Shown here one piece after another: positions 33,494 through 62,929 of a stretch of 64,000 bases of DNA. Below the pieces are notes generated by a model. That model saw only the letters and a program-made list of their open reading frames with translations. It did not search any database and was not told where the DNA came from. The DNA comes from an uncultured delta proteobacterium (GTDB lineage Bacteria > Myxococcota_A > Polyangia > Polyangiales > JAFGIB01), in contig CAVZVA010000009.1 in the NCBI GenBank assembly GCA_963778655.1, positions 906,235 to 970,234 of the forward strand, in the 5' to 3' direction. The number at the start of each line of letters is the position of its first letter. Within the stretch, counting starts at the first letter, position 1. The position numbers and the translations under genes were made by a program.

Positions 33494-34699
<1,206 letters not shown>

Positions 34700-41773: not shown

Positions 41774-43615
41774 TCAGAACCGTCGCCGCCGGATCAGCGC
41801 CGCCAGGGCGAGCAGCAGCAGCGAGCCGCTGCCACCTGCCTCCGGTAAGCCGCCGCCGACGTTGCAGCCGCCGCTGTGCGCGACGCTGCTGCCGCTCTTG
41901 CCGCCGTCGTCCACGCCGGCATCGCTGGTGCCACCGCTCGAGCCACCGGAGCCGGCGCTGCCGCCGCCGCCGCTCTTACCGCCCGTGCTGCCGCCGCTCG
42001 TGCCGCCCGTGCCGCTGTCGGCTGTGCCGCCATCGCTGGTGCCGGCGCCGTTCTGCTTGAGCATCGCGACGATCATGTCCGTGCGATCGTCGATCACCTT
42101 GCCCTGACCCTGCTTGCCGTACTGCAGGATCTTGAGCGCCGCGGGCTGACTGTCGATCATGATCGGCCAGGTCCCGATGGTCGTGCCGTGCACCTCGCCG
42201 CCCTGCGGCAGCACGAGCCGCCACGGGCTGTTGGATGTGCCGCCGCCATTCCCGCACTCGATGTAGAAGTCGGCGGTGTGGATGTTGCTGACGTCGCCGA
42301 GGTCGGAGTTGAAGTCGAAGGCGGGATCGAGGGTCATCTCGGCCGCGCTCATCGTGGTGTACAGGCGCGTGATGTAGGGGCGCGAGTCGAGCAGCGCCTG
42401 GGTATCGGCCAGCGGCTTGATCACCATCTCGTAGAGCTTGGTCAGGAAGGTCTGGGTGTCGAAGGTCACGCCCGCCGCGTTGATGTAGCAGGATAGACAG
42501 CGCTGGAAATCCGAGAACGCGATGTTGCTGGGCAGCGTGACCGAGGCCTGCAGTGCGTCGTTGAAGCCGTCGTAGTTGCCAAACATGTTGGTGGCGTCGC
42601 GGACCATCGAGGCCGCGTCGGTGTAGCTCGTCGCCTGGAACTGATTCCACTGCTGCTGCTGGTAGCCGGCGAAGATCTGGACGCCCGTGTTGTTCACCAG
42701 ATCAGAGACCTTGCCCGCATACTCGGTCACGAAGCCCTGGCCCATGGCCTCGTCGGCAGCCTTGCTCACGACCTCGTTGTAGTTGTTGTTGGGATTGAAC
42801 CAGTCGATCAGCGCCTCGTTGAGCTCGAGCGCCTTGTAGTTCTCCGGAATCGCGCGCGCGTCCGACAGCACCCACACCAGCACGCCCATGTCGTCGTTGG
42901 CCGCGACCGCGGTGGGCCTGATCGGAATCGACGGCAGCGCCGAGTCATAGGTGATCATGACCGGGCGGATCGAGCCGGTCATGTTGCCCTTGCTCAGCTT
43001 GAACGCGAGCAGGTTGAGCCCGTCTTCGAGATAGGGGCGCAGCACCACGTCGCCCATCGGGCCCACGTCGTAGCTGTGCGCGGTGAGCCAATCGACCGCG
43101 ACCTGGGCCGCGTCGCTCGCTCCGGGGTCGACCATGATGACGTCGTAGTCATAGGGACCGACCGCACCGGAAGCCACCACCGTCACTGCGGGCGCAGACG
43201 CGGCCCCCCCCGTGCCCGAGGCGTTGCCAAATCCGACCGCACCGGTTGCCATCGGCACCGCGCAGCTGCCATCGAACATGGTCTGCCGGGTGTACTGGGG
43301 GTTGGTCGCCTGCTTGAGCGCCTGGAAGGCCGAGTCCGAGGAAACCGCGACCGTCGGGTTGCCGGGCACCGGCAGCACCCAGGCGAACTTCTGCGACGGC
43401 CCGTCGTACATGATCTGGATCACCGCGGTCACCGTGCCGTCCGCGTTCTTCGAGAACACAATCTGTTCGGCGGCCTGGTTGACCGGATTGGCCGCGGAGC
43501 AGAAGAAGCCGCCGCAGGCCTTGGCCGGGCTCGGCGCCATCGCAATTGCAGCCGCGGTCAGGCCGGCCAATGCCGCGCCCACCCATGCGAACCCCTGTGG
43601 TCGTTCGAAGCGCAT
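41774..43615 (-). CDS. DUF2330-like secreted protein with a MYXO-CTERM-like C-terminal sorting tail
   Basis: ATG 43615 lies 7 nt after GGGAGAG. The signal peptide is followed directly by the ACGGFFC motif that I associate with DUF2330. The C-terminus has a Gly/Ser-rich spacer and then HSGGCNVGGGLPEAGGSGSLLLLALAALIRRRRF, that is, Cys, a hydrophobic helix and an Arg cluster. The 1114-aa ORF-track version adds 500 aa of Arg-rich shadow sequence antisense to 43862-45235. Confidence 0.75.
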   Translation of the reverse strand: MRFERPQGFAWVGAALAGLTAAAIAMAPSPAKACGGFFCSAANPVNQAAEQIVFSKNADGTVTAVIQIMYDGPSQKFAWVLPVPGNPTVAVSSDSAFQALKQATNPQYTRQTMFDGSCAVPMATGAVGFGNASGTGGAASAPAVTVVASGAVGPYDYDVIMVDPGASDAAQVAVDWLTAHSYDVGPMGDVVLRPYLEDGLNLLAFKLSKGNMTGSIRPVMITYDSALPSIPIRPTAVAANDDMGVLVWVLSDARAIPENYKALELNEALIDWFNPNNNYNEVVSKAADEAMGQGFVTEYAGKVSDLVNNTGVQIFAGYQQQQWNQFQATSYTDAASMVRDATNMFGNYDGFNDALQASVTLPSNIAFSDFQRCLSCYINAAGVTFDTQTFLTKLYEMVIKPLADTQALLDSRPYITRLYTTMSAAEMTLDPAFDFNSDLGDVSNIHTADFYIECGNGGGTSNSPWRLVLPQGGEVHGTTIGTWPIMIDSQPAALKILQYGKQGQGKVIDDRTDMIVAMLKQNGAGTSDGGTADSGTGGTSGGSTGGKSGGGGSAGSGGSSGGTSDAGVDDGGKSGSSVAHSGGCNVGGGLPEAGGSGSLLLLALAALIRRRRF

Positions 43616-43861
43616 TCGTGCTCTCCCTTGCATCCCGGTGTACCCGGGGCTGGGCCACGCCCTGTGGCACAGCCTGGCACAGCCCGCACCCAATCCTCCA
43701 AGCATACTGCAACCCCCATGCCAGCGCCCCGGCCGGCCTGAACCGCCCTGAGACAGGCGAACATACCGAAACAGTTCCGGGTTTCGCGCCTCGCAGCCGA
43801 TTGTCATCATCCGGCAACGGGCCGGTTTGGGGTCCGAGCCGCGCCGGCGCGGGAGGCGTTC

Positions 43862-45235
43862 ATGGAGGGAACCCAGAAGCTCCGCCCAGTGGGCGTGTCC
43901 GTTTCGGGACGCCTCACCGGGCCCCTGGTGATCGCCGGGTTTGTGCTCGCCGCAACCTGCGCCTACGTCGCGCTGGCGCTGCGGCCGCAATGGGCGGCTG
44001 CGCTGCGCGCCGCGTGGGACGGCGTGCTGCAAGCCGGCCGCGGCGGCGTCTGGATCCTGCCGCTGCTGGCCGCTGTCGCGGCAGTGCTCGGCGTGGTGCT
44101 GGCCGCGTTCCTGCTGTCGGCGTTCGTGCGCGGCGTGCAAGCGGCGCCCTATGCGTGGCTGGCGCCGGTGCTGGTCGGCTTCTCCAGCTTCGTGCTGGCG
44201 CGCATGCGCATCGACCTGCCGCTGGGCCCCGTTCCGGCGCCGCTGTTCGCGACGCTGAGCGGGTTGCTGCTGCTCGGCGGCGGTGCGCTGGCGCAAGTGC
44301 GCGGCTGGCCTGCCAAGCTCTCGGGAGCGCTTGCGCTCGGCTTGCCCCTGCTGCTGCTGGGCTGCGCCTACGCGCGCGCGGGCGGCGGCCTGCTGCCGGC
44401 CTGGCGCGCGCTCGACCCGACCGCGGGTCTGTTTCTGTTCGTGCTCGGCTTGACCAGCGTCGGCGTGGCGCTGGTGGCGGCGGTGGCCCGTCCTGCCGGC
44501 CCGATCGGCGAGGCGGCCCAGCGCGCGCGCAGCTGGCGCGAGCACAGGCAGCAGCTGGCGCAGGCGCTGAACCACGCGCGCGAGAGCGAGCTGCGCGCGG
44601 CCGAAGCCGAGCGCCGCGCCGAGCTCGCCGAGCACGCGTTGCAGGCGGCGCATGCGGTGGCGGCTCGCGCGCCCGCGTTCGGGCACGGGGAAGACACCGG
44701 GCGATTCATGGCGCTCGCGCGGCCGCCGCTCTTGAGCCGCACCGCCCGGCTGTGGATCGGTGCGCCGCTGCTGCTGGTCACGGCCTTGCTCGTCGCGTAC
44801 CTGGCGGCCTATAGACCGCTCGCCCGGCGCGCGGCCGCGCAGCAGGTGTTCTCGACCGAGAGCGCCAAGGAGCACGCCGAAGAGATCGACGCGCTGCGCA
44901 AGCGCTTCGCAACGGAGCGCCAGCACCTGTACGAGGCGCTGGCCGCCGAGCGCGCCCACAGCGAGCAGCTGCTGCAGCAAGCGCGCGAACAGGCGGCGAC
45001 GCAGCCGGCGCCGAGCGCGGAGCGGACCCCTGCGGCGGTAGCGCCGGAAGTGGCGAGGCCCGTGGCCAGGGCTGTCAGGCACGCGACCAGGGCGAATGGC
45101 CGGCACGCGCGCCGCCATGCGGCCAGGAGCCGAGCGCGCACGCGCACGCAGCCCGCGAAGCGCGAAGCGGCCCAGCCGCGCGAGTCGGGCGAGACCCTCG
45201 ACGACGATCCGATCGGCGGCCTCGAGGGCATGTAG
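43862..45235 (+). CDS. hypothetical membrane protein with a coiled-coil/charged C-terminal half
   Basis: ATG 43862 lies 5 nt after GGAGG. About six hydrophobic helices occupy the first 210 aa. Next come Ala/Glu/Arg-rich helical segments (ESELRAAEAERRAELAEHALQAAH), one more TM helix and a basic tail. I recognise no family. Confidence 0.6.
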   Translation: MEGTQKLRPVGVSVSGRLTGPLVIAGFVLAATCAYVALALRPQWAAALRAAWDGVLQAGRGGVWILPLLAAVAAVLGVVLAAFLLSAFVRGVQAAPYAWLAPVLVGFSSFVLARMRIDLPLGPVPAPLFATLSGLLLLGGGALAQVRGWPAKLSGALALGLPLLLLGCAYARAGGGLLPAWRALDPTAGLFLFVLGLTSVGVALVAAVARPAGPIGEAAQRARSWREHRQQLAQALNHARESELRAAEAERRAELAEHALQAAHAVAARAPAFGHGEDTGRFMALARPPLLSRTARLWIGAPLLLVTALLVAYLAAYRPLARRAAAQQVFSTESAKEHAEEIDALRKRFATERQHLYEALAAERAHSEQLLQQAREQAATQPAPSAERTPAAVAPEVARPVARAVRHATRANGRHARRHAARSRARTRTQPAKREAAQPRESGETLDDDPIGGLEGM

Positions 45236-45253: not shown

Positions 45254-48200
45254 CTACTCGGCCGCGCTTTCGCCCTCTTCGGCGATCCGCTCGTCGTGCT
45301 CGGCCGCGGGCTCGCCGTGCACGGCCACGCCGCTCTCCGCCCTGCGCGCGAACCCACTGCGCCCAGGCACGTGGATGCGCACTCGGCTGATCAGCGGGTG
45401 CGAGGAAGGGCGCTCGATCACGGCGGGCTCGGCGCGCTCGAGCTTGCGCTTCGGGAAGTCCAGCCAGTGGCGCTCGCGTTGGAAGGGATAGCTCGGCAGC
45501 GTGAGCTTGGCGCGCGGGTAGGGCGCGTCGAACGCGCGCCAGTCGATCTCGGCGCCGCGCGCGTAGAGCTGAGCTAGCGTGCCGAGCAGCGCGGCCCAGT
45601 CGTCGCCGCTTGCGCAGAGGGAGGGCAGGGCGAGCTCTGCAGGCCCCGGATCCGCGGCCGCCGCGGGGCCGAGCTCGAGGCAAATGTCCGCGTGCTCGCC
45701 GATCAGCGCCGGCACGCCGCCGGCTGCGGTGGGCTCGTGGTAGAGCTGGCGCGCCCAGTGCTCGGTGTTCGGCAGCTCGCCCGGCGCGAGCCAACCCCCG
45801 CGCCACGCGCTGGCCAGCGGGAGCTCGGGCGCTGCGTACTGAGCGGCGTCCAATGCGACGCGCAGCCCATGTACGGTCAGGCGCTGCGTGGCGCCCGGCG
45901 CCAGCCCTTCGAGCACGACCCCGCGGCGGGTCGCGAGCACCAGCGCCTGCTCCCACGACATCGCGCCTGCGGCGGCAGCGGCCGCGTATTCGCCCGCGCC
46001 CGAGCCGTAGACCGCGCTCGGCTCGAGCCCCCAGCTGCGCCACAGCGCGTGCAGCGCGTAGTGCAGCGCCAGAAGCGCGGCGTGGCCGTAGCTCGGACGG
46101 CAGAGCAACGCCGCGCGCTCGCTCTGGGGCGCGTGGTAGAGCGCGTCGAGCAGCGGGTGTTCCAGCTCCTGGGCAAGCACACGGTTGCAGTGCTCCAGGC
46201 TCTGGCGCAGCCGAGGGTGGGCCTGCCACAGCGCCAGGGCGGCACCGGGCGACACCACGCGCTGTGGAAAAGCGAACGCGACGCGCAGGCGCGCGCCCGG
46301 CTTGAGCACGCCGGCGTGCACGCCCGGGGCAGGCGCGCCGCCGGCGAAACGCTGCAGCGCTTCGCGCGCGTCGGCGGCATCGGCCGCGCTCACCCCCAGG
46401 CGGTGCGCGAAGTGGCTGCGGCCCACGCCCGCGGTGAAGCAGTAGTCTGCGAATAGCTCGGGCGGCGCGTGGGCCAGCGCGTGCCGCGTGCGCGCCGCGA
46501 GCTGGGACAGGGCTGCGGGCGTGCGCGCCGACAACACCAGCAAGTGGCGCGGCCGCTCGTGGTCGCAAGGGTGCACGCGCGCCGCGGGCGCCTCGCGCAG
46601 CACCACGTGTGCGTTGGTGCCGCCGAAGCCGAACGCGCTCAGCCCGGCGAAGCGCGGGCGCTCGCCGCGCCGCCAGGGCACGGCCAGAGTGGGGATCTCG
46701 AGCGGCAGCGCGTCGATGCCGATGTCGGGGTGCACGTCCCGCAGGTGCAAGTGAGGCGGGATCTCGGCGTGGTGCAGCGCCAGGGCGACCTTGATCAACG
46801 CGACCATACCGGAGGCGGCTTCGAGATGCCCGACGTTGGTCTTGGCCGAGCCCACCAGCAGCGGACGGCCCGGCGGGCGCCCCGCCATCACCTCGCCGAG
46901 CGCGCGCAGCTCGACCGCGTCGGCCACCGGGGTGCCCACGCCGTGACACTCGACGTAGTCGATCTCGTCCGCGCTGACCTCGGCCGAGCGGAGCGCCTGC
47001 TGCAGCAGCGCCTGCTGCGAGCGGCCGTTCGGCGCCAGCAGGCCGTTGCTGCGGCCGTCGTGGTTGACCGCGCCCCCCGCGAGCAGCGCGTAGACGCGGT
47101 CGCCGTCCGCCAGCGCGGCCGACAGCGGCTTGAGCACCACCACTCCGGCGCCCTCGCTGCGCACGAATCCATCCGCCCGGCTGTCGAAGCTCTTGCAGCG
47201 GCCGTCGCGGGATAGGGCGCGCGCGTGCGAGAAGTACACGCTCGCCTCCGGCGCGAGCACCACGTTGACGCCGCCCACGATGGCAAGCTCGCAGTCTAGC
47301 TCGCGCAGGCTGCGGCAGGCGTGCTGCAGCGCGACCAGCGAGGACGAGCAGGCGCTGTCGACGGTCTCGCTCGGACCCTTGAGGTCGAGGAAGTACGAGA
47401 GCCGGTTGGCGACGATGCTGGGCGCGTTGCCGGTGCCGTAGTCGGCGTCGATCATCTGCAGGTCGCCGCCATACAGCAGGCTGTACTCGCTGCCGCACAC
47501 GCCCGCGAACACACCGGTGGCGCTGCCCGCGAGCGCGGTGGGCGCCTGGCCCGCGTCCTCGAGCGCCTCCCACGCGACCTCCAGGAACATGCGCTGCTGC
47601 GGATCCAGGCGCGCCGCCTCGTGCGTGGAGATGCCGAAGAAGGCGGCGTCGAACGCATCCACTCCCTCGACGAAGCCGCCCCACTTGCTGCACATCTTGC
47701 CGCGGGCGCCGGGCTCGGGATCGTAGAGCGCGTCCGCGTCCCAACGCTCCGGCGGCACCTCGCTGATCGCATCGACCCCGTTGCGCAGCAGCTGCCAGAA
47801 GCCCTTGAGGTTGGGTGCGCCGGGGAAGCGACAGGCCATGCCCACGATCGCGATCGGCTCCTGTGCCCGCGCGCGCGCCCGCTGGCGCGGCGCGCGCACG
47901 GCCGGCGCGGAGGGCCGCGTGGCGGCGTCGCCGCCCGACAGAGCGCGCGCGAGATCGGCGATGGTCGGGTTGTCGTACGAGATGGTCGCGGGCAGCTGCG
48001 TGCCGAGCCACTGCTGCAGCTCCTCGGTCAGCTCGGCGGCGAGCAGCGAGTCCACGCCGTAGCGCGCGAGCGGCTCGCGCGGGTCGATCTCGCCGGCGTC
48101 GCGCTCGAGCTTCTCGGCCAGGCGCTCGCGCAGCCACTGGACGATGCGCTGCTCGCGCTGAAGCGCGGTCGGCCGGGTGAGCGTGCGAAACGGGGGCGCA

Positions 48201-50071
48201 TCGTCGCCGCCTTGGCTCTGTTCGACGGTTCGAGGCGGCGGTGCGTCGGCGCTGCGCTGCGGCCGTTCGCTCCAGCGAGGCGACGGCAGAGAGCCCGCTG
48301 AAGGCGCGGAGCTCTGGTCGCGCCCCCGGTCGGCACCCGCGAGCTGCCACGACGCCACCACCTGCAGGTCGCCGGCGAGGTAGGCCTGCCTGGTCGCGCG
48401 CCGCTGCACCTTGCCGCTCGAGGTTTTCAGCATGCTGCCGCGCTTGATCAGCACCAGTGCGGCCGGCGCCAGGTCGTGCGCCTCGCGGATCGCCTGCGCC
48501 GCGCCCCGCAGCAGCGCGTCCTGATCGGCGCCCAGCCGCTTGTCGAGCTCCTGCACCACCACCAGCTGCTCGCCCAGCTCGCCGTCGACGGAGAACGCCG
48601 CGCCGGCGTCCGCCACCAACGCCGCGTGCATGTCCTGCACCGTGCGCTCGATGTCCTGGGGGTAGTGGTTGCGCCCGCGCACGATGATCAGGTCCTTGAG
48701 CCGGCCAGTGATGAACAGCTCGCCCTCGTCGAAGAACCCGAGGTCGCCGGTGCGCAGAAAAGGCCCCTCGTGCGTATCCGCGGTGTGCGCGCGAAAGGTC
48801 CGCTCCGTCTCCTCGGGTCGATTCCAATACCCGAGCGCCACGGACCGGCTCTGCACCCAGATCTCCCCGACCCGCCCTTCCGGCAGCGTGCACAGCGTGT
48901 ACGGGTCGACGATCAAAATGCGCTCGTCGAGCAACGCATGCCCGCACCCGACCAGCGTGCGGGTCCGTGGCGCGGATTCGGACGGGCCGGCGACGCGCGC
49001 CGCGTGCCCCTGCTCCAGCTCGCCGGCATCATATGCGCGCACCAGAGGAGGCGACGCCGGATCGCCGCCCGAGATCATCAGGGTCGCTTCCGCCATGCCA
49101 TAGCAGGGGTACATGGCTTCGCGCCGCAGCCCGTGCGCGGCGAAGGCATGCGCGAAGCTCGCGATGGTCGAGGGTTTGATCGGCTCGGCGCCATTGCAGA
49201 CCACGCGCACCGAGGTGAGGTCGAGACCGACGCGGTCCCTGGCATCGATGCGGCGTAGGCACAGGTCGAAGGCGAAATTGGGAGCCATCAAGACGCTGGC
49301 CCGGTGGTGTTGGGCAGCGACAAGCCAGCGCTTGGGGCGGCGCACGAACGCCTGGGACGGCATCAACACGGCTCTGCCACCGACGTACAGCGCTTGGAAG
49401 ATGCCGCCCATCAGCCCCATGTCGTGGAACGGTGGCAACCAGCTGAGAAAGACGTCGTCCGCGGTCGTGGTGCTGCCGGCCCGGATGATCTCCTGGCCAG
49501 CGAGCAGCTGAGCGTTCGTCAGCAGCACACCCTTGGGCTCGGAGGTGGATCCCGACGTGTACTGGAGAATGGCGGGCCGCTCCGGCGCGGCGCCCACCAC
49601 GACGCCGCCCAAGGCGTCGCCCTGGACCGCGCTGGAGACGTCGACCAACGCGATCTCGCCGAGCGGGCGCTCCGCGTCTGCCGCCCAGCGCGCGCGCAAC
49701 TCACCGGTAGTCAGCGCGCTCTGCGCGCCCGAGTCCTGCGCGATCGCCCGAATCCGTTGCCAAGCCCGAGCCACGCCGCCTTTCCCCGGTGGGTATGCAG
49801 GCACCGCGATCGCGCCGGCGTACAGGCAGCCGAGCAGGGCGACGACGTAATCGAGGCCCTCCGGGCAGAGCACTAGCACGGCGCGGCCTTCTGCACCCAG
49901 CGAGATCAGGGCGGCACCTGCGGCCCGCGCACGCCGGTCCAGCGAGGCGTAGGTCAGCTCGACCGCCGCCGTAGCGGCTGAGTCGAGAAACGTATACGCC
50001 ACGCGATTGGGGTGCTGGCCGCTGTGCCGCTGCAATACGTCCAGCAGGGATTCATCAACAGCGACAGCCAT
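45254..50071 (-). CDS. hybrid loading/PKS module: fatty acyl-AMP ligase (FAAL) - ACP - KS - acyltransferase-like domain lacking the catalytic Ser
   Basis: FAAL motifs: ILQYTSGSTSEPKGVLLT, WLPPFHDMGL and LRTGDLGF. ACP: ARYGVDSLLAAELTEEL. KS: IAIVGMACRFPGA, DSACSSSLVAL (Cys codon 47348-47350), ECHGVGTPVADAVE and NVGHLEAASG. The AT-like region reads ...HAALLALHYALHALWRSWGLEPSAVYGSGAGEYAAAAAAG, with GSGAGE (45989-46006) where GHSxGE is expected. No carrier domain follows the AT-like region. Confidence 0.88.
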   Translation of the reverse strand: MAVAVDESLLDVLQRHSGQHPNRVAYTFLDSAATAAVELTYASLDRRARAAGAALISLGAEGRAVLVLCPEGLDYVVALLGCLYAGAIAVPAYPPGKGGVARAWQRIRAIAQDSGAQSALTTGELRARWAADAERPLGEIALVDVSSAVQGDALGGVVVGAAPERPAILQYTSGSTSEPKGVLLTNAQLLAGQEIIRAGSTTTADDVFLSWLPPFHDMGLMGGIFQALYVGGRAVLMPSQAFVRRPKRWLVAAQHHRASVLMAPNFAFDLCLRRIDARDRVGLDLTSVRVVCNGAEPIKPSTIASFAHAFAAHGLRREAMYPCYGMAEATLMISGGDPASPPLVRAYDAGELEQGHAARVAGPSESAPRTRTLVGCGHALLDERILIVDPYTLCTLPEGRVGEIWVQSRSVALGYWNRPEETERTFRAHTADTHEGPFLRTGDLGFFDEGELFITGRLKDLIIVRGRNHYPQDIERTVQDMHAALVADAGAAFSVDGELGEQLVVVQELDKRLGADQDALLRGAAQAIREAHDLAPAALVLIKRGSMLKTSSGKVQRRATRQAYLAGDLQVVASWQLAGADRGRDQSSAPSAGSLPSPRWSERPQRSADAPPPRTVEQSQGGDDAPPFRTLTRPTALQREQRIVQWLRERLAEKLERDAGEIDPREPLARYGVDSLLAAELTEELQQWLGTQLPATISYDNPTIADLARALSGGDAATRPSAPAVRAPRQRARARAQEPIAIVGMACRFPGAPNLKGFWQLLRNGVDAISEVPPERWDADALYDPEPGARGKMCSKWGGFVEGVDAFDAAFFGISTHEAARLDPQQRMFLEVAWEALEDAGQAPTALAGSATGVFAGVCGSEYSLLYGGDLQMIDADYGTGNAPSIVANRLSYFLDLKGPSETVDSACSSSLVALQHACRSLRELDCELAIVGGVNVVLAPEASVYFSHARALSRDGRCKSFDSRADGFVRSEGAGVVVLKPLSAALADGDRVYALLAGGAVNHDGRSNGLLAPNGRSQQALLQQALRSAEVSADEIDYVECHGVGTPVADAVELRALGEVMAGRPPGRPLLVGSAKTNVGHLEAASGMVALIKVALALHHAEIPPHLHLRDVHPDIGIDALPLEIPTLAVPWRRGERPRFAGLSAFGFGGTNAHVVLREAPAARVHPCDHERPRHLLVLSARTPAALSQLAARTRHALAHAPPELFADYCFTAGVGRSHFAHRLGVSAADAADAREALQRFAGGAPAPGVHAGVLKPGARLRVAFAFPQRVVSPGAALALWQAHPRLRQSLEHCNRVLAQELEHPLLDALYHAPQSERAALLCRPSYGHAALLALHYALHALWRSWGLEPSAVYGSGAGEYAAAAAAGAMSWEQALVLATRRGVVLEGLAPGATQRLTVHGLRVALDAAQYAAPELPLASAWRGGWLAPGELPNTEHWARQLYHEPTAAGGVPALIGEHADICLELGPAAAADPGPAELALPSLCASGDDWAALLGTLAQLYARGAEIDWRAFDAPYPRAKLTLPSYPFQRERHWLDFPKRKLERAEPAVIERPSSHPLISRVRIHVPGRSGFARRAESGVAVHGEPAAEHDERIAEEGESAAE

Positions 50072-50465
50072 AGACGCAGCCCGGCGAAGAAGCGCAGCCT
50101 AGCCTATCCGAAAGCTTGTTCGGAAAATGTTTCGATTTCGATTCTGGCTCGATGCTGACGGCGATCAGCCCCAGGTTGCAGACTAATTGCGTCGGCTCCG
50201 GAGCGCGTGAGCTCCGGCCGCCGCCCACTGACAGCGCCGAGTATCGGATCACAAGGGCCAGTTGGGACTCGAACATGTGTATAGCGAGGAGCTGAACGCG
50301 CGTGCGGGCTTCCGACTCTTGGCTAAAGAAGTTACGGGATTGGAGTGCCAAGCCCGGAGTCAAAGAGAGAGCTGGCAGCACCCCGGTGCGCGGGGAGTTG
50401 CGTACTCCATGACCGACCCGCGGCGGTTGTCCGTTGCGGGTCAGCGGCTACGTTGACCTAAGAAT

Positions 50466-53400
50466 ATGTCCGAGGATCGAGACCGACCTGCAGGCGCGCC
50501 GCCCCCGCGCAAACACCGGCACGACGCGGACGCGCCGTCGTTCATAGAGCTGGAGTGCGACGTAGCCCGCGCTGCCCTCGCCCTTCCCTCCGATGCACAC
50601 GGGCTGCTGGCGCTCGCAATCGCGCTCGATGCCGTGGCGGCCGGGGTGGCCGAAGTGCTCGGTATGCCCAAGGACTTGGCTTGCATCGACGTGGCGCCAG
50701 CTCTGTTCGAGCCGGGTGTGGTGACATTGAATGTCGGCGTCGACGTTCTCGAGTCCACCTTTCTCGTCAAGGCGAGTCGCGCTGGCGCGGGAGGGGAGCA
50801 ACTCACGATCGCCGCAATGGGCCGGCTCGAGGATCCTCGCGCCGCAGGCATCCCGCGCTTATCCATGATCCTGTCCCGCACCGGCGGGACGGTCGCGATC
50901 GAGCTCGACGCCGTCAGCAACGAGGGCCCCGGCGCCGAGCTCATCGCGCTGGAGCGAGCGTTGAGGCTCGCCGGAGAAGCCGCCGGATCCACGACGCGCC
51001 CGTGGGCACGGCCCGCGCACATCGCGCGGTTTTCGCAGGCGCCCAACCGGGCCGCGGTGGTCAGCATCCGCGCCGTGGCCGTCGAGCCCAACATGGCGTG
51101 GGTCACGTTGTTGGACGCGGAAGGAGCGCCGGCCGCTACCCTCGAAGGAGTCGACTTTGGCGATTCAGCAAGCGGGCGACAGGCCCTGCCGGCCCTGGTG
51201 ATGGAAGTCGCGCGCGCGACGCTCGGTGAGGCATTCGGCCCGAACGACAATTTGGTGCGCGCGGGCCTGGGGTCATTGGACATCCTGCGTCTGCTCGACG
51301 CGATCGAACACGCCTTCCACAGGCGCATCGGTCGTAACGCGTTCCTGCGTGACCCCACGCTCGCCGGTCTCGCGGCGTTGTGCGAGCTGGAAGCCTGCGC
51401 CGATCCCGCGTTCGACGCGCGGCTTTCCGAGGGGGAGCCGCGTCCGGCCCGCGCTGTCCCACTCACCACGGCCGAACGCCATCTGTGGCTGTTGGAGCAG
51501 AGCGGCACCCTCGCTGGAACCTACAACGAGCTGATCGTCTTTCGACTCGACGGCCGTCTCGACCGCGATGCTCTTTCAGCCGCGATGGCACAGGTCGTCC
51601 ACCGGCACCCTGGACTTCGCTCCGGGTTCCACGCGGAGGGCGCAGAGTTGCTGCGCAACGCGCTCATCCGGGCGATTCCCGACAGCCGGTTCCATGACTT
51701 CGCCTCGCTCGACCCGGAGGCCGCGCAACGCGCGGCGACCTCAGCCATCGCGGCCCACGCGTGTGAGCCGTTCGACCTGCACCGCGGTCCCCTGCTGCGC
51801 TGGATCAGCGTCAGGATGCCTGACGCCACGGATCTGCTCGCGCTGGTCGCTCATCATCTGGTGATCGACGAGTGGTCTCTCGGGAGGGTGCTGCTACCCG
51901 AGCTGTGCGACTTCTATCGTTTGCCCGCCGACGTACGACCGGAGCCCTCGCCAGCGCCGGCGAGCCTGCCCGACCGGGCGGCGCGCGAGGAAGCGTCCCG
52001 GACCGGATCGGCCTACGCGGCCTCGCTGGCTTGGTGGACGCGGTACCTGGACCAGGCGGTACAGCCTCTGCAGCTGTCGGCGGCTGCAGCGGCCGATGAG
52101 GGCGCCGGCTACGACGGGCACGTGGAGACATTTCCTCTGGACCCAGCTGCCATACAGCGGCTCGGTGCGCTTGCGAGGTCGGCGGGCGCAACACCGGCAT
52201 CCGGCGTCATGGCTGCATTGCAGCTCGTGCTCAATCGGCTGTGCGAGGAGGAGGTCTTCTGCATCGGCGTCTTCTGCGCCGGGCGAGATCTCGTCGCCGA
52301 CGCCGGCGAGGTGGGGTATTACGCCAACCTACTTCCCGTCCGCGCTGATCTGAGGGGCGAGCCGAGCGTCGCGGAGCTCATCGCGCGCGTGCACGAGAAT
52401 ATGAGCGGCGTGCTCGCCCATTCGAGGGTGCCCTTTGCCGAGATTGCGCAAGCGGCGCGCCGCGCTGGTGGGTCGTCTTCTGCCGCGGGGCTGGTGCAGG
52501 TGGTCTTCGCCCAGGACGATCTCCCCGACCGGTTGGAGCTAGGCTCTCTGCGGGCGACGCGAATCGGCCTGGACAAGGGGCGTGCCAAGTTCGAGCTCAC
52601 CGTCACCACGCGGCTCGGCGGTGCCGCCCGGGCGCCGACCATGACGTGGGAATACCGCACCGGCATCCTCGACGGCGACAGCGTACGGAGGCTCGCCCAG
52701 TTGCTGGGGGCCTCCATCGATTGGATGTCCAAGAACCCGGAAAGCTCGATCTCGAACGTCGAGCTGCTCAGCTCCCGACAAGCCTCGGCCGTGATCGCGC
52801 GCGGTTCGGGACCGCAGAGCGCCCTTCCGCTCAAGCGTGTGTCGCAGATGATTGTCGAACAGGCAGCCTGCACCCCCGACGAGATTGCGGCCGTCTCGCA
52901 CGCGAAGAGCCTTTCGTACCGAGACATTGAGAGGGGCAGTCGGGCGCTTGCGGCTGCTGTCCATCGAGCCGGCGTGCGGCCGGGCAGCTTCGTGGGCGTT
53001 GCGTTGGAGCGTGGGGTCGAGCTGCCGATGGCGCTTCTCGCCGTCCTGCGCGCGGGTTGTGCCTATGTTCCACTCGACCTGGACCAACCGCCCGATCGTT
53101 TGCGGTGGATCGTTCGGGATGCAGGCGTCAGCGCCGTGCTTTCGTCTGGTGGCAGCGCGCGGCGGACGCTCTCGGAGCTGATCCACGTGGATGTCCCCGC
53201 CGGCGTTGTCGAGGAAGAGTTGCTTCCTCTCGACGAGGGGCAACTCTCGATCGAGGACGTTGCGTATGCGATCTACACCTCGGGTTCCACCGGACAACCA
53301 AAGGGGGTGCTGGTCAGACACGCGGGAGTTTCGAACGTGTTTCACGGTGTCGCGGAGCGCTTGGGGCGGCACGAGTCCAGCGTTTGGCTCGCGGTCACGA

Positions 53401-55784
53401 GCCTTGCGTTCGACATCGCTGCTCTCGAGCTGCTGTGGCCGCTGTGTTTCGGAGGGGTCGTCGCTGTCGATCCGGGACTCGCCGCCGACCAGCCGGACGC
53501 GCAGGATTGGCCCGGCCGGCTCGCGGAGGTGGGCCTTCCGCAAGGAGTCACGCACCTGCAGTGCACTCCGACCGGCCTCGCAATGTTGCTTCGCACGGCC
53601 GAGGGCCGTGCGCTGTTGCGCGGCGTGCGCGAGCTCATGATCGGCGGTGAGGTCCTTTCTCCGGCGCTCGTCGGGCGAGCGCGCTCCGCCGGCAGCGCCC
53701 GGATCTGGAACATGTACGGGCCCACGGAGACGACCATCTGGTCCTCGATGCACGAGGTGGGTCGGGTGGAAGGCCCGGTTCCCATCGGGCTTCCGCTGCG
53801 CAACACGCGGTTCTACGTGCTCGATCGCCGCGGCCGCCTAGCGCCCGACGGGCTGCCTGGAGAGCTCTGCATCGCAGGCAGAGGCGTGGCCAAGGGCTAC
53901 GTCGGGCAGCGGCCCGAGGGCGATTCGGTCTTCGTCCGAGATCCGTTTCAGCCAGGCGCGAGCGGGCCGATGTACCGAACCGGCGATCGAGTCCGATGGA
54001 ATGCGGACGGCGAGCTGGAGTTCCTCGGTCGCTACGACGGCCAGATCAAGATGCGCGGGTTTCGAATTGAGCCCGCCGAGATCGAGGAGGTTTTGCTCCG
54101 GCACCCGTGCGTGAGGCTGTGCGCGGTGGTCGTCCACCGACTTGCTGGCCGTGACCAGTTGGTCGCGTTCGTCGAGTTGCAGCAACCAGGCGTCGAGCTC
54201 GGCGAGCTGCGCCGGCATGCGGAGGGGTTTCTGCCTCGCTACATGGTCCCTCATGCATTCGTGGTTCGCGATGCGTTGCCGACACTTTCGAGCGGCAAGA
54301 TCGATCGCAAGAGCCTGGCGCTCGCAGCCCCAGATGCGACGCGATCCATCGTCCACCGGGAGCCGGCCACGGCACTCGAGGCGGCGCTGCTGCGGATTTG
54401 GAGAGAGGAGCTCGTTGCGCCGGCGGTCGGCGTCGACGAGGACTTTGCAGACGCAGGAGGCGACTCGCTGCTCGCGCTACCGTTGCTCGCCCGTCTGCGC
54501 AGCGAGCTCGGACAAGCAGTCACATTGCCACTCCTTCTGGAGAACCCGACGGTGGCGAAGCTCGCGATGGCTCTGGAACGAAGTGCTCGTATCGGGCCTG
54601 AAGCATCGTCTATGGCCCCCGGCGATGCGGTGGGAACGAGGAGCAATGCGAAGATTCTCGACAGGGCGCTTGACCAAGGGCTAGACGGGCCGGTGATTGC
54701 CGCCGCCTTGGCCACGGTTCCGGACGCAATGCTTCCTCACGTCGCGGACGCGAGCTGGAGAGGTTCTCCGATGTGGGTCGCATCCCTGCACACGGATTGG
54801 GGAACGCTGGCGCTCCTGACCCTGCCTGTCGCTGACTCCGAGGTCTACGACGAGCGCGGGCGGCTCCAGGCGCGATGCCAGGATGCGCTCGTGCTGGCTT
54901 CGGAGCTCGGGGCCAAGACGGTGTCGCTCACCGGGCTCACGGCCTCTGCCACGGGTTACGGCCGTTTGCTCAGTGTGCCCGACGAGCGCATCAAGATCAC
55001 GACTGGGCACGCGACCACCTGCGGTGCGGTGGTTCTCACCCTCGCTGGACTGCTGCGAGAGACGGGTCGCCGCATCGACGAGGAGAGGCTCGCCATCGTC
55101 GGTTTGGGCTCCATGGGGCATGGTGTCATGCGCCTGCTACTCGCGCTGGGAATGCATCCCAAATCGCTGGTGCTGGCGGATACGCCGGCGCGAGCATCCC
55201 GTCTGCTGAGAATCGAAGCGGAAGCCAGAAGCCTGGGCTACCTCGGCGAAGCGATGTGCTGCTCGGCCGGAGCGCACGCCAGCCACAAGATATATGCGGC
55301 GACCGCGGTCGTCGGAGCAACGAACGTCGGCGGAGTCCTCGATGTTGCCCGCTTGCCAGCGGGTTGCCTGGTCGTAGACGACTCCGCACCTCACTGCTTT
55401 TCGGTCACGGCCGCGTTCGAGCGCATGAGAGTGCAGAGGGACGTTCTGTTTACGGGCGCAGGCGTGTTGCGCTGCCCGGAGCGCGTCGGGATCAAGGTGA
55501 GCCCGAGCTGGCCCGACCGCTCAGGGCACTCGATCGTCGCCGCCTTCGGTCCGGCCGCCGAAGAGATTCCGGCTTGCATGTTGTCGAGCCTGATGACGAC
55601 GGTGGCGCCTTCGGAGGCGGTGGCCACCGTCGGCGAGGCGCAACTCGAAGCCTTGCTGGGCCATTACCGATGGCTGACTGCGCATCACGTCGGGCACGCC
55701 TCGTTTCACCTTCAGAGCCAGGCTATCGCAACCGCGGACCTCGTCGAGTTCGCCCGCAGATTCGGACACCGGCTGGTCCTCTGA
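50466..55784 (+). CDS. NRPS module with an N-terminal unknown domain and carrier protein: X - ACP - C - A - PCP - acyl-ACP-reductase-like terminal domain
   Basis: Carrier 1: LVRAGLGSLDILRLLDAIE (Ser codon 51273-51275). C domain: HHLVIDEWS (51852-). A domain: YAIYTSGSTGQPKGV, NMYGPTETT, YRTGDRVRW and GRYDGQIKMRGFRIE. PCP: DAGGDSLLALPLLARL (Ser codon 54465-54467). The C-terminal ~400 aa has ITTGHATTCG, the Rossmann segment IVGLGSMGHGV, and IPACMLSS (Cys codon 55575-55577). Confidence 0.88.
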   Translation: MSEDRDRPAGAPPPRKHRHDADAPSFIELECDVARAALALPSDAHGLLALAIALDAVAAGVAEVLGMPKDLACIDVAPALFEPGVVTLNVGVDVLESTFLVKASRAGAGGEQLTIAAMGRLEDPRAAGIPRLSMILSRTGGTVAIELDAVSNEGPGAELIALERALRLAGEAAGSTTRPWARPAHIARFSQAPNRAAVVSIRAVAVEPNMAWVTLLDAEGAPAATLEGVDFGDSASGRQALPALVMEVARATLGEAFGPNDNLVRAGLGSLDILRLLDAIEHAFHRRIGRNAFLRDPTLAGLAALCELEACADPAFDARLSEGEPRPARAVPLTTAERHLWLLEQSGTLAGTYNELIVFRLDGRLDRDALSAAMAQVVHRHPGLRSGFHAEGAELLRNALIRAIPDSRFHDFASLDPEAAQRAATSAIAAHACEPFDLHRGPLLRWISVRMPDATDLLALVAHHLVIDEWSLGRVLLPELCDFYRLPADVRPEPSPAPASLPDRAAREEASRTGSAYAASLAWWTRYLDQAVQPLQLSAAAAADEGAGYDGHVETFPLDPAAIQRLGALARSAGATPASGVMAALQLVLNRLCEEEVFCIGVFCAGRDLVADAGEVGYYANLLPVRADLRGEPSVAELIARVHENMSGVLAHSRVPFAEIAQAARRAGGSSSAAGLVQVVFAQDDLPDRLELGSLRATRIGLDKGRAKFELTVTTRLGGAARAPTMTWEYRTGILDGDSVRRLAQLLGASIDWMSKNPESSISNVELLSSRQASAVIARGSGPQSALPLKRVSQMIVEQAACTPDEIAAVSHAKSLSYRDIERGSRALAAAVHRAGVRPGSFVGVALERGVELPMALLAVLRAGCAYVPLDLDQPPDRLRWIVRDAGVSAVLSSGGSARRTLSELIHVDVPAGVVEEELLPLDEGQLSIEDVAYAIYTSGSTGQPKGVLVRHAGVSNVFHGVAERLGRHESSVWLAVTSLAFDIAALELLWPLCFGGVVAVDPGLAADQPDAQDWPGRLAEVGLPQGVTHLQCTPTGLAMLLRTAEGRALLRGVRELMIGGEVLSPALVGRARSAGSARIWNMYGPTETTIWSSMHEVGRVEGPVPIGLPLRNTRFYVLDRRGRLAPDGLPGELCIAGRGVAKGYVGQRPEGDSVFVRDPFQPGASGPMYRTGDRVRWNADGELEFLGRYDGQIKMRGFRIEPAEIEEVLLRHPCVRLCAVVVHRLAGRDQLVAFVELQQPGVELGELRRHAEGFLPRYMVPHAFVVRDALPTLSSGKIDRKSLALAAPDATRSIVHREPATALEAALLRIWREELVAPAVGVDEDFADAGGDSLLALPLLARLRSELGQAVTLPLLLENPTVAKLAMALERSARIGPEASSMAPGDAVGTRSNAKILDRALDQGLDGPVIAAALATVPDAMLPHVADASWRGSPMWVASLHTDWGTLALLTLPVADSEVYDERGRLQARCQDALVLASELGAKTVSLTGLTASATGYGRLLSVPDERIKITTGHATTCGAVVLTLAGLLRETGRRIDEERLAIVGLGSMGHGVMRLLLALGMHPKSLVLADTPARASRLLRIEAEARSLGYLGEAMCCSAGAHASHKIYAATAVVGATNVGGVLDVARLPAGCLVVDDSAPHCFSVTAAFERMRVQRDVLFTGAGVLRCPERVGIKVSPSWPDRSGHSIVAAFGPAAEEIPACMLSSLMTTVAPSEAVATVGEAQLEALLGHYRWLTAHHVGHASFHLQSQAIATADLVEFARRFGHRLVL

Positions 55785-55861: not shown

Positions 55862-58800
55862 TCAGGACCGATCTTGCGTGGGGTGGGCAAATCCAGGTGC
55901 GTAGGTGGCGACCCACCGCTCCGGGTGCTTGACCCCCTGCGCCCTCAGGGCCGCATCCACGGCGTCGATCTCTCGTGTCCCATCGAGGCCGCCTCTCATC
56001 GCTCCGCGGTTCCGCCGAGCGTACAAGGTGAAGAGCGGCATCTGGCTGCGGTCGCAAGTCGCTACTGCCTCGTCGAGAAGCTGGAGCGCGTGCTCCTTCC
56101 GGCCCTCGATCCGAGCGATCCCCGCACGCGCAATCAGCGACCAGGCCTTCGCGTCCGTCCGGCCCATGTGTTGCAGCGTGGTGGCCTGCTCGCGGGCGAC
56201 GCGAAGCGCCTTCAAGACGTCCCCGCCCCCTTGAGCGGCGCCGAGGGCGGCGCGCGCCAGAAACCAGTGTCCGAGCACCCGGATCGGCAGCGCCCGAAAC
56301 AGGAGACTGTGTTGGAACGCCTCCCAATGCGAAAGGTGATGGGCCAGCGCATCGGAGCCGCGACCGCAGTACAGGTGGACGTCGACGGTGCGGTGGACTC
56401 CCCACAGTCGCAGCGTCGTGAACTCGCCGGTCGCCAGGTCGCGTTGCTCCCGCAGGATTTCTAGCGCTGAGGAAGGGTCGTCGGCCATCAGCCGCGATGC
56501 GGGCACCGCCAACGCCAGGAAACCTCGCGAGAAGTGATCATCGCGCTCCAGCGCTTGGCGGGCCAGATCAGGCGCCTCGCGTGCCACCTCGAGCAAGCTG
56601 CCGGTCTGCTCGATCGCCCCCAGACGGAAGGTCGTGAGTAGATTCTGTTCCCAGGAGGTGCCCGGGCAGTAATTGCGAAAGGTCTCCAGCGCTTCCGAAG
56701 CAGGCGCCAAGGCGTCGGCGAAACGAGCGAAGAAGAACTCGCAGCCGGCTCGTGCCATTTGCGCGGTGGCGTGTGCGTAAGGTGTGCCGACCGTGGACGC
56801 GACCTCCTCCGTGCGCGCCAGTAGCGCTCGAGTACGGGCCTCGTTTCGGGAGCCGCCGATCAGGGCGGCGTCGAATGCTTCCCATGCCAAACCGAGCAGC
56901 AGCCGGTTCGGCTCGCCAGCGCGCAGCACCTCGCTCAGATAGCGCCGCTGGAGCGCGGCCCCGCGAAGCGCATCGATCGCGGAAAGCTCGCGAAACACTG
57001 AGCCGAGCACGTCGACTCGCTCGACAATGAAAGGCGGAACATCGCGGGCGTTGCGCAGGCCCGTATCGAGCCCACGCACGGCGATCGACAACTTGCTCCA
57101 CATCAGCGTGCCGAGCACCGCTGCCGTGCTGCGAGGCCAGGCGACGCCGACGCCCCTCAGAAGCTCTTTGGTGAGGGCCACGCCCTCCTCGATTCTCCCG
57201 CTGCGCAGGTACTGCTGGGCGGCCATCCGCTGCAGAGCTCGCGCTTCCGCCCCTTCGAGCCCCTCCGCCGCCTGCAGGTACGCTTCCGCCGCTTGTGCGC
57301 CGCGGCCGGCGTTGGCGAGGGCGTCACCCAGGTGCTTGTGCAGCTCGCGCCCGGTCGCGTCATCGGGCGGGACGAGGTCGATCGCCTTGCGGAACAGGTC
57401 CGCAGCGCGGTTGAAGGCGAGCTTGGCCGCCGCGGCGTGGGCCGCTTGCATGGCGGTCTCGCCAGCACGGCCGCCGTCGCCGGCCCCGCTGTAATGCACG
57501 ACCAGACGTTCGGGGTCGCCCACGTCGTGGTGCTCCATCGCGTCCGCGATGTGAGCGTGGATGTTGCGCACCACGTCCGGATGCAAGTTGCGCACGACGG
57601 TTTCGCGCACGCGGTCGTGGTAGGTCTCTGCGCGGTCGGTCTGACGCGTGCCGCGGGTCCGAATCAGCCGGGCCGCCCGCAGCGCCAGCAGGGCCGAGCG
57701 GTCGCCGGTCTGTAGCGCCGCCGCCTCGATCGCGACGCCCTGCTCGAGCGGTCCCGCGGCCACGCTGAGCACGCGCAACAGGCGCTGCGCGTCTTCGGGC
57801 ATGCCGGCGATGCGCTCGAGGATGACCTGGTCGAGCGAGACCGGCTGGGCGGCCAGCGCGAAGTGACCCTGCTCGGAATGGGTCTTGAGGTGATGGACCA
57901 GCTCGGCGATGAAGAATGGGACGCCCTCGGCCTCGGCGGCGACGGTCTCGGCGAGCAGCCCACCGGCCTCGCCCAGCTCGCGCAGCAGCGCGGATGCCAG
58001 CTGTCGGGCCTCGTCCTCGCCGAGCGCGTCGACCGCCAGCTCGCGCACCTCGGCCGAGCCCTCGCGCAAGCTGCGCTCGCCGACGATGTGCTGCAGAAAT
58101 GGGCTGTTGTCGGCCTCGTCCCGGCGGTAGGTGCCGACCAGGAGCAAGGGCGGCGGCTCCGGCGGTCCCATCAAGAAGGCCATCAATCGGGCGCTGTCCA
58201 TATCCGCCCACTGCAGGTCGTCGATGTTCAGCACTAGCGGCTGGTAGTCGGTGATGCGCAGCAACAGATCTTTGAGCGCGGCAAACGCCTGGTTGCGCAG
58301 CTCGCGCGCGTCGGTGGTCTGCTTCTGCGAGCGGCGGGCATGGGCGACGGCCTTGACGCGCTTGAGCACCGGAAACAGCAGCGCCAGCGAGTGCACATTG
58401 CGCGGCAAGAGCTCGGCAGCCTGCTCGGCCGGCAAGCGCATCATGTAGCGGCTGAGCGCGTCGATGATGTTGTCGAAGGCTTTGTAGGGCACGTTTTCGC
58501 GCTCGTAGCAGCGACCGCGCAGCACCACCGCCTCGTCGGAGCGGATCAGCTCGTTGGCGAAGCAGCGGACCAGCGCGCTCTTGCCCATGCCCGACAGGCC
58601 GTGCACGAACACCGTGACCGGCTTGCGATTGCGGCTGACCTCGAAGGCGTCGCGCAGCTCCGTCAGGTGCTGCTCGCGTCCGACGAACAGCTCTCCCTGT
58701 TTGCGGATTACGGCCGACGCCTGAGCGTCGAAGACTGGGGGCGGCACCGAGTGACCGGTCAGGTAGCGCAGGATCTCGCTGCCACTCGGGCGCTGCGTGG

Positions 58801-62557: not shown

Positions 62558-62929
62558 CGTGGGCTCCAATCTTTCGAGACGTTCGGGTGCTCGGCGGTCG
62601 AGCTTCGCGAACGTAGCGAGTCGTCCGCGATTCGCAACAAGGACGCGGCACGGCGCGGTCGCCGGGACCCGGGGCACACCCGGCCATTTTGAAATTTTCC
62701 ATGTAGGGAGCACGGCAGCAGGCATCCGCTGGCCCCGGAGTCGATCGTCCTTGCGCGCCTGCCGGCCCGGGGCCAATTGCGAGCGGACTCACCGCCGAGC
62801 GCAAAAGTCATTTCCTTCGTCCCCGCGGCTCCCTATGCTGGGCGACCCTGTCTTCGGGGGGGGCCTCGGAGCGGCCGCGTTGTGCGCTCCGATCCGAATC
62901 AACCGCACGCCGCGATTGTCTGTGGCTCG

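Follow-up and report, generated by a model that had tools for sequence, protein, structure and literature searches.

The locus described here raises the question of what two giant genes, transcribed away from each other across a short spacer, build together and how the finished chain is released. Both lie in a 64,000-nucleotide (64-kb) stretch of DNA from an uncultured delta proteobacterium (contig CAVZVA010000009.1), which we call the window. Gene A encodes a polyketide synthase (PKS) with the domain order FAAL-ACP-KS-AT0, in which FAAL is a fatty acyl-AMP ligase, KS a ketosynthase and AT0 a truncated, acyltransferase (AT)-like domain. Gene B encodes a non-ribosomal peptide synthetase (NRPS) with the order X-ACP-C-A(Gly)-PCP-TAD, in which X is an orphan N-terminal region, C and A are condensation and adenylation domains, and the terminal domain is of the recently described family of terminal amidation domains, or TADs (Table 1). 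Taken as a whole, the pair is best explained as a two-subunit hybrid PKS/NRPS line that would make an N-(3-oxoacyl)glycinamide, an explanation to which we give an even chance of being right. An earlier note, made from the letters alone, had placed the two open reading frames and a 394-bp spacer of lower GC content between them; we recovered the same coordinates and the same dip in composition (60.7% in the spacer vs 69.3% in the window overall).

Conservation of the gene pair

The domain assignments for both proteins are ordinary protein homology at the sequence level, with E-values far beyond chance, and codon-position GC marks both genes clearly as coding. Pfam and NCBIfam reproduced the order that had been proposed for the minus-strand protein, FAAL-ACP-KS-(AT-like) with no terminal carrier, and Pfam confirmed an unassigned N-terminus (245 aa) followed by carrier, C, A and PCP on the plus strand. 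The proposal that the two genes form one assembly line held up as well, as the divergent pair recurs at two syntenic loci, L053 and L088, whose flanking kinases are 61% and 59% identical to those of the window. L053, a contig of a metagenome-assembled genome, carries the same divergent pair (PKS 50% identical, NRPS 36% identical from the ACP onward) and shares a downstream 1270-aa kinase gene, which is the 61% match. Per domain, identity between the window and L053 falls from 69% for the KS through 53% for the FAAL, 43% for A, 37% for the TAD and 30% for C to none for X.

Two further relatives pair a similar PKS with a different partner. At L088 the KS is 70% identical and the partner (777-6083) reads X-ACP-C-A(Gly)-PCP-R, ending in a classical NAD_binding_4 reductase (R) domain; its flanking kinase is the 59% match, to window positions 34812-38669. 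L108 has the closest PKS of all (KS 75%, FAAL 59%) and a partner (243-5654) with the order X-ACP-KS-AT-ACP-R, also with a NAD_binding_4 reductase. The N-terminal regions of all four partners are about 300 aa long and mutually unalignable. Across these loci, therefore, the starter subunit is kept, whereas its finishing partner has either been swapped or diverges rapidly. We tentatively suggest a "plug-and-socket" family, in which a FAAL-ACP-KS-AT0 starter docks via a split, dead dehydratase (DH) onto a Gly-NRPS-TAD, a Gly-NRPS-R or a PKS-R partner, and in which the TAD form would make an N-(3-oxoacyl)glycinamide-type lipid by NAD-dependent amidation.

GC at third codon positions (GC3) is 0.90 in gene A and 0.785 in gene B, the latter below every neighbour (flanking genes 0.85-0.92), while the PKS and NRPS genes of L053 have equal values (0.81). 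The low GC3 of gene B and its stronger divergence from L053 may reflect partner replacement or recombination. The products of gene A and gene B are each singletons in a collection of 15 billion proteins.

The starter subunit and its inactive acyltransferase

The top NCBIfam matches of the first domain are FAAL families (E 1e-130 to 1e-102; PRK05850 1.7e-130), although under the curated full-length cut-offs. The KS has an intact Cys908/His1043/His1082 triad, and its DSACSSS, ECHGVGT and KTNVGH motifs are retained also in L053. The domain that follows is a different matter. Its Acyl_transf_1 match in Pfam is limited to residues 1277-1394, which correspond to profile positions 14-128 of 319, and alignment to the CurL KS-AT structure shows GSGAGE in place of GHSvGE and QRVVS in place of GQGsQ. 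CurL residues 717-801 stand opposite query residues 281-294, where 13 residues mark a deletion of about 70 aa. AT0 thus has neither the GHSxG serine nor the GQG(S)Q motif nor the complete large and small subdomains of a functional AT, and the "apparently dead AT" of the earlier note is indeed inactive by GSGAGE, the lost GQG and the deletion. No carrier domain follows it in Pfam.

AT0 is not a product of random decay but a feature that more than 30 related FAAL-PKSs have in common. The pattern G-x-G-x-G-E shows no variation when the protein is aligned to L053 and to eight fragments from metagenomes (44-58% identity), and a GxG(A/V)GEY motif occurs at more than 25 further soil-metagenome loci, many of which encode unsplit proteins. 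A large soil-metagenome family (L085-L104 and L112) encodes FAAL-ACP-KS-AT0-DH-ER-KR-ACP in a single protein, with GAGVGEY for GHSxGE throughout. One such unsplit relative, the 2715-aa protein of L091 (6482-14629), has this order with an AT match to profile positions 3-134 and a DH that retains HxxxGxxxxP. The order of the unsplit relatives is the ancestral one. Since a full reducing loop stands behind AT0 in these proteins, AT0 modules would work and elongate, with malonate supplied by a separately encoded AT. In a multimodular PKS (L109), three modules in succession carry this AT motif without the serine.

A module without elongation, in which the KS just hands the chain on ACP1 over to ACP2 and an unextended N-acyl-glycine amide or aldehyde results, would suit an inactive AT in a window that has no acyltransferase gene, and the earlier note had also left room for it ("possibly extended once"). 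We consider this improbable. Non-elongating KS0 domains usually lack one of the two KS histidines, whereas both histidines for decarboxylative condensation are kept in the window and in L053. The DH-ER-KR loop of the unsplit AT0 relatives is only sensible if a beta-keto group is formed, and a 1000-aa KS-AT0 block for mere acyl transfer would be unparsimonious.

A probable junction within a split dehydratase

The tail of gene A contains SSHPLISRVRIH, one of the best-conserved stretches in this family. Aligned with L053 and the metagenome fragments, it shows no change at H314, P315 and L316 and next to none at R319, V320 and R321. Unsplit relatives show equal spacing from the AT to HPLLGERV, which is the first DH strand, and continue into an active DH body; split relatives reach a stop codon 20-45 residues past the HPL strand. 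In L053 the missing body can be recognized on the other subunit. The N-terminus of its NRPS partner matches PKS_DH_N from profile position 13 (28.6 bits) and PS-DH (38.5 bits), and alignment to the CurF, PksJ and DEBS DH structures shows that the catalytic His has become Leu. When the L053 PKS tail is fused to the partner N-terminus, the PKS_DH_N match widens to positions 1-97 and rises from 28.6 to 41.0 bits (+12.4). The L053 tail restores profile positions 1-12, and unsplit homologues show equal spacing; the gene break is therefore placed within the DH, past the first strand. By this comparison, SSHPLISRVRIH in the gene A tail corresponds to the opening strand of a PKS dehydratase and is probably the docking element.

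The line had previously been described as split in an unusual place; the break is better seen as an intramodular KS(-AT0)/DH junction, a class known from trans-AT PKSs. The companion suggestion that the N-terminal carrier of the NRPS accepts the KS product is supported: ACP2 is the ACP of the split module, and no carrier stands after AT0. Its Ser270 is retained in L053.

Region X of the window gave no such match to DH. Pfam (to E 0.5), NCBIfam and PDB returned no matches, and an exhaustive HMMER search over 1.84 billion representatives found only X itself and one repeat-inflated artefact. X has no PKS_DH_N or PS-DH match, and neither has a chimera of the gene A tail and X in a Pfam scan; the HPL strand on gene A is all that can be recognized of a DH, whose hallmarks would include the His of HxxxGxxxxP and the Asp of DxxxQ/H. 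BLAST and hhalign comparisons of X with the L053 X and five solved DHs were negative (hhalign probability 0.2%). The X regions of the window, L053, L088 and L108 cannot be aligned with one another; pairwise BLAST among them, also against the L091 DH, was empty. A homology search seeded with the inactive L053 DH (DH0) yielded zero matches. An AlphaFold2 (AF2) model of X, built from the single sequence without an alignment, has low confidence (pLDDT 44) and shows a helix-plus-sheet pattern twice, and codon-position GC marks X as coding from codon 1. Position and the L053 counterpart suggest that X is most likely a fast-evolving, decayed remnant of the DH body that serves as a spacer or dock, rather than the new "unknown N-terminal domain" it had been taken for.

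The same observations could point to a cluster that is itself a decaying, non-functional remnant, with the dead AT, the unrecognizable DH and the fast-diverging NRPS as signs of pseudogenization. X has no homologue among the 1.84 billion representatives, NRPS domains are only 30-43% identical to L053 compared with 69% for the KS and 61% for the flanking kinase, and NRPS GC3 is under that of its neighbours. The reading frames, however, are unbroken across 1605 and 1772 codons, and catalytic and carrier motifs are intact apart from those of the AT and DH. Dozens of loci share the motifs of AT0 and of the tail, the TAD invariants described below are intact, and the glycine-type code is kept in three relatives. 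We regard a dead cluster as very improbable.

A glycine-type adenylation domain

Aligned to the GrsA-PheA numbering, the A domain has the specificity code DILQMGMIWK. A gap at position 331 in the GrsA alignment is an artefact, as the sequence there reads ETTIW. An earlier hand alignment had given the same ten letters, with Lys517 assigned to GQIKMRG; the lysine actually belongs to motif A10 (SSGKIDR), which leaves the letter unchanged. That reading had also set the code two Leu-to-Met changes away from a glycine code, DILQLGLIWK. The glycine-like character stands, and the nearest documented code is DILQLGMIWK, which is 9/10 identical and differs only at position 299. Among 83 Gly domains, positions 299, 322 and 330 are variable. 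The A domains of L053 and L088 both have DILQLGMVWK. On the strength of the code, the A domain reads as glycine-activating, or at least glycine-like.

The terminal domain and its family

The C-terminal ~400 aa of gene B have no above-threshold Pfam family, and NAD_binding_4 and Epimerase gave no match to the terminal domain even at E 0.5, which leaves it without the marks of an SDR-type R domain. A canonical SDR-R terminus, which the earlier note had named as a sign against its own proposal, was accordingly not found by Pfam in gene B. Instead, phmmer aligned about 340 residues covering both subdomains (macro-like N-terminal and Rossmann) with PDB 9e4s/9e4x at E 8.3e-52, query residues 61-401 of the terminal segment corresponding to 9e4s chain residues 70-417. 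These structures are linked to the CarI TAD through a preprint with matching numbering (TTG 2042-2044, GLGSVG 2076-2081 and Asp2102), and identity to the CarI TAD is about 35-38%. All invariant TAD columns are present, namely TTG 1512-1514, GLGSMG 1546-1551, Asp1572 and Cys1704 (equivalent to CarI Cys2238). The loop at 1638-1642 reads DDSAP, with Ala for the Gly of DDSGP as in most aligned relatives, and retains Asp1638 together with the other Asp, Ser and Pro. The domain also sits where the family sits, at the C-terminus after the PCP (1307-1367). Weaker matches were found to the N-terminal thioester-reductase domain of PigE (NCBIfam 2.8e-12; PDB 4ppm 2e-5). By homology, then, the "atypical reductase" of the previous description is a TAD rather than a reductase of the SDR type.

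The fold of TADs resembles that of acyl-ACP reductase (AAR), and of the two cofactors they bind NAD(H) only, with no binding of NADP(H) (Rankin et al., bioRxiv 10.1101/2024.10.28.620694). The lines that end in them make primary amides, namely carmabin, vatiamide E/F and hectoramide B (bioRxiv 10.1101/2024.10.28.620694). A scan of 185,579 species genomes recovered 180 TAD relatives, the closest at most 41% identical to the TAD of the window. An Opitutales line with the order KS-AT-DH-cMT-ER-KR-ACP-C-A(DILQLGLIWK)-PCP-TAD likewise ends in a Gly module and a TAD, and therefore the Gly-then-TAD order recurs. The idea that the TAD is always coupled to glycine was ruled out, as TAD-terminal modules in 80 genomes show many different A-domain codes.

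Archangium species encode a 1494-aa protein with the order FAAL-ACP-(~450 aa Pfam-less)-TAD (L060 6650-11134, from Archangium gephyra; also L036, L045, L062, L075 and L077). It has no NRPS module, and its TAD apparently sits directly on a fatty-acyl carrier.

A proposed route and its rivals

Homology shows which domains are present, that the AT is inactive, that the two genes stay paired across loci, that the family is split within the DH, that the terminal domain is a TAD and that the A-domain code is of the Gly type; from these points we infer the following route. The FAAL would adenylate a free fatty acid and load it onto ACP1, from which the acyl chain would pass to the KS with its intact Cys-His-His triad. 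ACP2 on the other subunit would be malonylated by an AT encoded elsewhere, which we invoke because the resident AT has lost its Ser, the GQG motif and about 70 residues. A single decarboxylative condensation would give a 3-oxoacyl-ACP2, and the keto group would stay because there is no KR and the DH is a relic. The C domain would couple the 3-oxoacyl chain to Gly-S-PCP, and the N-(3-oxoacyl)glycyl group would move onto the invariant Cys1704 of the TAD and then be released, most likely as the primary amide N-(3-oxoacyl)glycinamide by analogy with CarI, VatR and HcaD. Throughout, the subunits would be held at the split DH, where gene A ends with SSHPLISRVRIH and gene B starts with the putative DH-body remnant as a catalytically dead spacer or dock.

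Several points weigh against this route. The trans-acting AT is hypothetical, and there is no AT gene in the 64-kb window. The DH descent of X is not demonstrable from its own sequence by Pfam, PDB, HMMER, hhalign or BLAST, and translation of gene B could in principle start at Met246, directly ahead of ACP2. At the release step, L088 and L108 have classical R domains where the window has a TAD, while AAR, the PigE N-terminal domain and TamH TR, that is, every tested homologue, are demonstrated aldehyde-forming thioester reductases. Finally, TADs, those of CarI and VatR included, gave no turnover in vitro with any nitrogen donor, and amide formation by a TAD was never shown (bioRxiv 10.1101/2024.10.28.620694).

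These last points bear on a version of the same line in which the TAD is a reductase and NADH reduces the Cys1704 thioester to give an N-(3-oxoacyl)glycinal. A spontaneous Knoevenagel cyclization of the glycinal could give a 3-acyl-pyrrolin-2-one, or other processing could follow; the cyclization is reasoned from fungal PKS-NRPS chemistry. The fold agrees with reduction, as the catalytic Cys of the AAR-like CarI TAD adjoins the nicotinamide C4 (bioRxiv 10.1101/2024.10.28.620694), and so does the match of the terminal domain to the PigE model (2.8e-12); the PigE N-terminal domain and TamH TR are proven thioester reductases, the latter NADH-dependent. NAD_binding_4 R domains occupy this very position in L088 (Gly-NRPS-R) and L108 (PKS-R), but a swap of off-loading domain between relatives may signal different rather than identical chemistry. 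Rankin et al. list a reduce-then-aminate route (bioRxiv 10.1101/2024.10.28.620694). On the other hand, identity to the CarI TAD is about 35-38% while AAR and PigE are only distant, the DDS(G/A)P loop retains an Asp that is specific to TADs, where AAR has Gly, and each of the three natural products connected with TADs is an amide and none an aldehyde. For the line as a whole we hold the aldehyde to be a possible outcome, on the unlikely side. For the release step taken alone, nearest homology and product correlations favour the amide, and the reductive alternative seems nearly as likely. Reductive release, as the earlier note had it, is therefore one of two live options: TAD homology favours the amide, and the canonical R of L088 and the tested homologues are reductive.

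Although TADs occur widely at the termini of NRPS lines, the reaction they catalyse is unsolved, and the sole study reported no turnover, possibly for want of authentic substrates. If the preferred route to N-(3-oxoacyl)glycinamide is right, this two-module line offers a minimal system for solving TAD chemistry. The TAD substrate would be just an N-acyl-glycyl-S-PCP, which is easily synthesized and loaded, and therefore the amide-versus-aldehyde question is directly testable. The family also illustrates how a PKS module can be cut within its DH: the AT and DH persist as scaffolds that are conserved but do not catalyse, and the partner downstream is swapped. Such a split bears on docking-domain engineering. 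The product would probably be a small lipo-amino-acid, and compounds of this class often serve as signals; a signalling role here has no support from the sequence.

Features and surroundings of the locus

The coordinates of the two genes, their domains and the adjoining features are collected in Table 1.

Table 1. Features of the PKS/NRPS locus, in positions of the window; residue numbers are those of the encoded protein
Feature	Position	Strand	Basis
Gene A: FAAL-ACP-KS-AT0 polyketide synthase, 1605 aa	45254..50071	-	ORF; Pfam and NCBIfam domain order
FAAL domain, residues 14-572	48356..50032	-	AMP-binding E 1.9e-64; AMP-dom_DIP2-like
ACP1, residues 645-711, Ser675 in GVDSL	47939..48139	-	PP-binding E 1.5e-16
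Ketosynthase (KS), residues 738-1110	46742..47860	-	ketoacyl-synt E 2e-95; Ketoacyl-synt_C
KS-AT linker (flanking subdomain), residues 1115-1245	46337..46729	-	KAsynt_C_assoc, CurL-like_PKS_C, RhiE-like_linker
AT0, truncated, inactive acyltransferase-like domain	45482..46243	-	Pfam; CurL alignment
Post-AT linker LPSYPFQRERHWL and 65-aa C-terminal tail	45257..45481	-	tail core SSHPLISRVRIH at 45371-45406
Divergent intergenic spacer, 394 bp, 60.7% GC	50072..50465	.	composition
Gene B: X-ACP-C-A(Gly)-PCP-TAD non-ribosomal peptide synthetase, 1772 aa	50466..55784	+	ORF; Pfam
X, 245-aa orphan N-terminal region of gene B	50466..51200	+	by position
ACP2, residues 247-305, Ser270 in GLGSL; carrier of the split PKS module	51204..51380	+	PP-binding 32.8 bits
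Condensation (C) domain, residues 330-774	51453..52787	+	Condensation E 4.5e-50; HHLVID at 463-468
Adenylation (A) domain, residues 798-1278	52857..54299	+	AMP-binding, AMP-binding_C, TIGR01733
PCP, residues 1307-1367, Ser1334 in GGDSL	54384..54566	+	PP-binding
TAD-family terminal domain (AAR-like), residues ~1430-1770	54753..55775	+	PDB 9e4s/9e4x match
Possible accessory gene, 457 aa, Pfam-less, membrane-like, Ala-rich; system membership uncertain	43862..45235	+	GC3 0.89; convergent with gene A

The spacer between the two genes shows no sigma-70-like promoter or terminator pattern. It also has no Rfam match, leaving the idea of a riboswitch without support, and its likeness to the L053 spacer is confined to the final ~20 nt ahead of the NRPS start. 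Within the 64-kb window, no linked trans-AT, PPTase, aminotransferase, amidotransferase or MbtH gene was found. The possible accessory protein next to gene A is 39% identical to the product of a gene at L081, which is equally convergent beside a related PKS fragment. This conserved plus-strand gene intervenes between gene A and a set of DUF2330, FecCD and ABC genes, which ruled out an operon of these genes with gene A. The 1114-aa minus-strand reading frame that carries DUF2330 (41774-45235; DUF2330 at residues 532-805) is over-extended, and its first ~420 codons overlap the 457-aa gene. Between the DUF2330 gene and a kinase, the minus strand encodes a FecCD-type permease and an ABC ATPase (39817-41674), with no substrate-binding protein identified there.

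The gene content of the window is myxobacterium-like, with several giant Ser/Thr kinase-AAA16-TPR proteins and with exosortase and polysaccharide genes. Three paralogous Ser/Thr kinase-AAA16(-TPR) genes of ~1280-1430 aa lie at 24262-28560, 34812-38669 and 55862-59698; the PKS/NRPS locus lies between two of them, which anchor the synteny with L088 and L053. The polysaccharide/exosortase region (4254-16313) includes RmlD-like, exosortase/CAAX protease and sugar transferase genes, two Poly_export/SLBB genes, a nucleotidyl transferase and a GDP-mannose dehydratase-like gene. At the window edge (371-3583), a type II ketosynthase pair (a KS and a more divergent KS-like protein) is followed by a FabG-like SDR and shows no link to the PKS/NRPS pair. 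Near the locus, the stretches 30801-34756 and 61373-62776 hold genes for a fatty acid hydroxylase, for a semialdehyde dehydrogenase-like protein and for two thiolases. These lipid-metabolism genes could conceivably supply or modify the acyl chain, though synteny gives no evidence for it.

Comparison with known systems

The closest counterparts of the terminal domain are those of CarI, VatR and HcaD, whose terminal modules read C-A-(MT)-PCP-TAD (PDB 9e4s, 9e4u, 9e4x, 9e50 and 9e56; bioRxiv 10.1101/2024.10.28.620694). Like them, gene B carries a ~400-aa domain past its last PCP, with TTG, GxGxxG, an NAD-selecting Asp, a DDSxP loop and an invariant Cys. Unlike them, the window has DDSAP rather than DDSGP, comes from a myxobacterium-like host rather than a marine cyanobacterium, and would act on a small N-acyl-glycine (predicted) rather than a long N-methylated lipopeptide, in a line of two subunits and two modules only. 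AAR, PigE-N and TamH TR share the Rossmann fold and, by sequence, a catalytic Cys that would accept an acyl group from a phosphopantetheine carrier, but they are aldehyde releasers that are not fused to an NRPS, and the relation is distant (PigE structure E 2e-5). The TAD clade differs from the AAR type in features of its own N-terminal subdomain and in an extra Asp at the nicotinamide (bioRxiv 10.1101/2024.10.28.620694).

For the junction, the nearest parallel is the KS/DH split of trans-AT PKS modules with a DHD docking tail, such as gladiolin GbnD4/GbnD5 (PMC9113145). Both have an intramodular break between the KS side and the DH, an upstream C-terminal extension of about 65-70 aa, and an AT that is non-functional in cis. 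In the window, however, the flanking subdomain of the KS and an AT relic are both still present, unlike in KSs of the DHD type, which have no flanking subdomain (PMC9113145). Here the break falls past the first DH strand (HPLxxRV), and therefore the tail may be a part of the DH fold that completes it, instead of a piece that binds to the DH surface. The DH, catalytically dead in L053, is unrecognizable in the window, and the downstream subunit is an NRPS.

Among myxobacterial systems, MxaA of the myxalamid pathway is C-A(Ala)-PCP-R, and its R domain carries out a four-electron reduction to the alcohol. The window line would resemble it in N-linking a polyketide to a small amino acid and in ending with a nucleotide-dependent off-loading domain. 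L088 has exactly the order C-A(Gly)-PCP-R. The terminal domain of the window is not of the SDR/NAD_binding_4 type, and no TAD counterpart of the four-electron reduction is known.

Lines of the MycA type (mycosubtilin/iturin) run FAAL-ACP-KS-...-C-A-PCP, with malonyl supplied by a discrete, operon-encoded AT, FenF. MycA is a single polypeptide whose aminotransferase domain leads to a beta-amino acid. The pair described here would be similar in its FAAL priming, its one KS extension without a working cis-AT and its direct hand-over to a C domain, but differs in having no aminotransferase, no linked AT and split subunits. The previous statement that no characterized pathway has this architecture agrees with our comparison, made without MIBiG, in which we found none either. 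Every part of the line comes from a known family; what is new is the combination, together with a split-DH junction that takes interchangeable partners.

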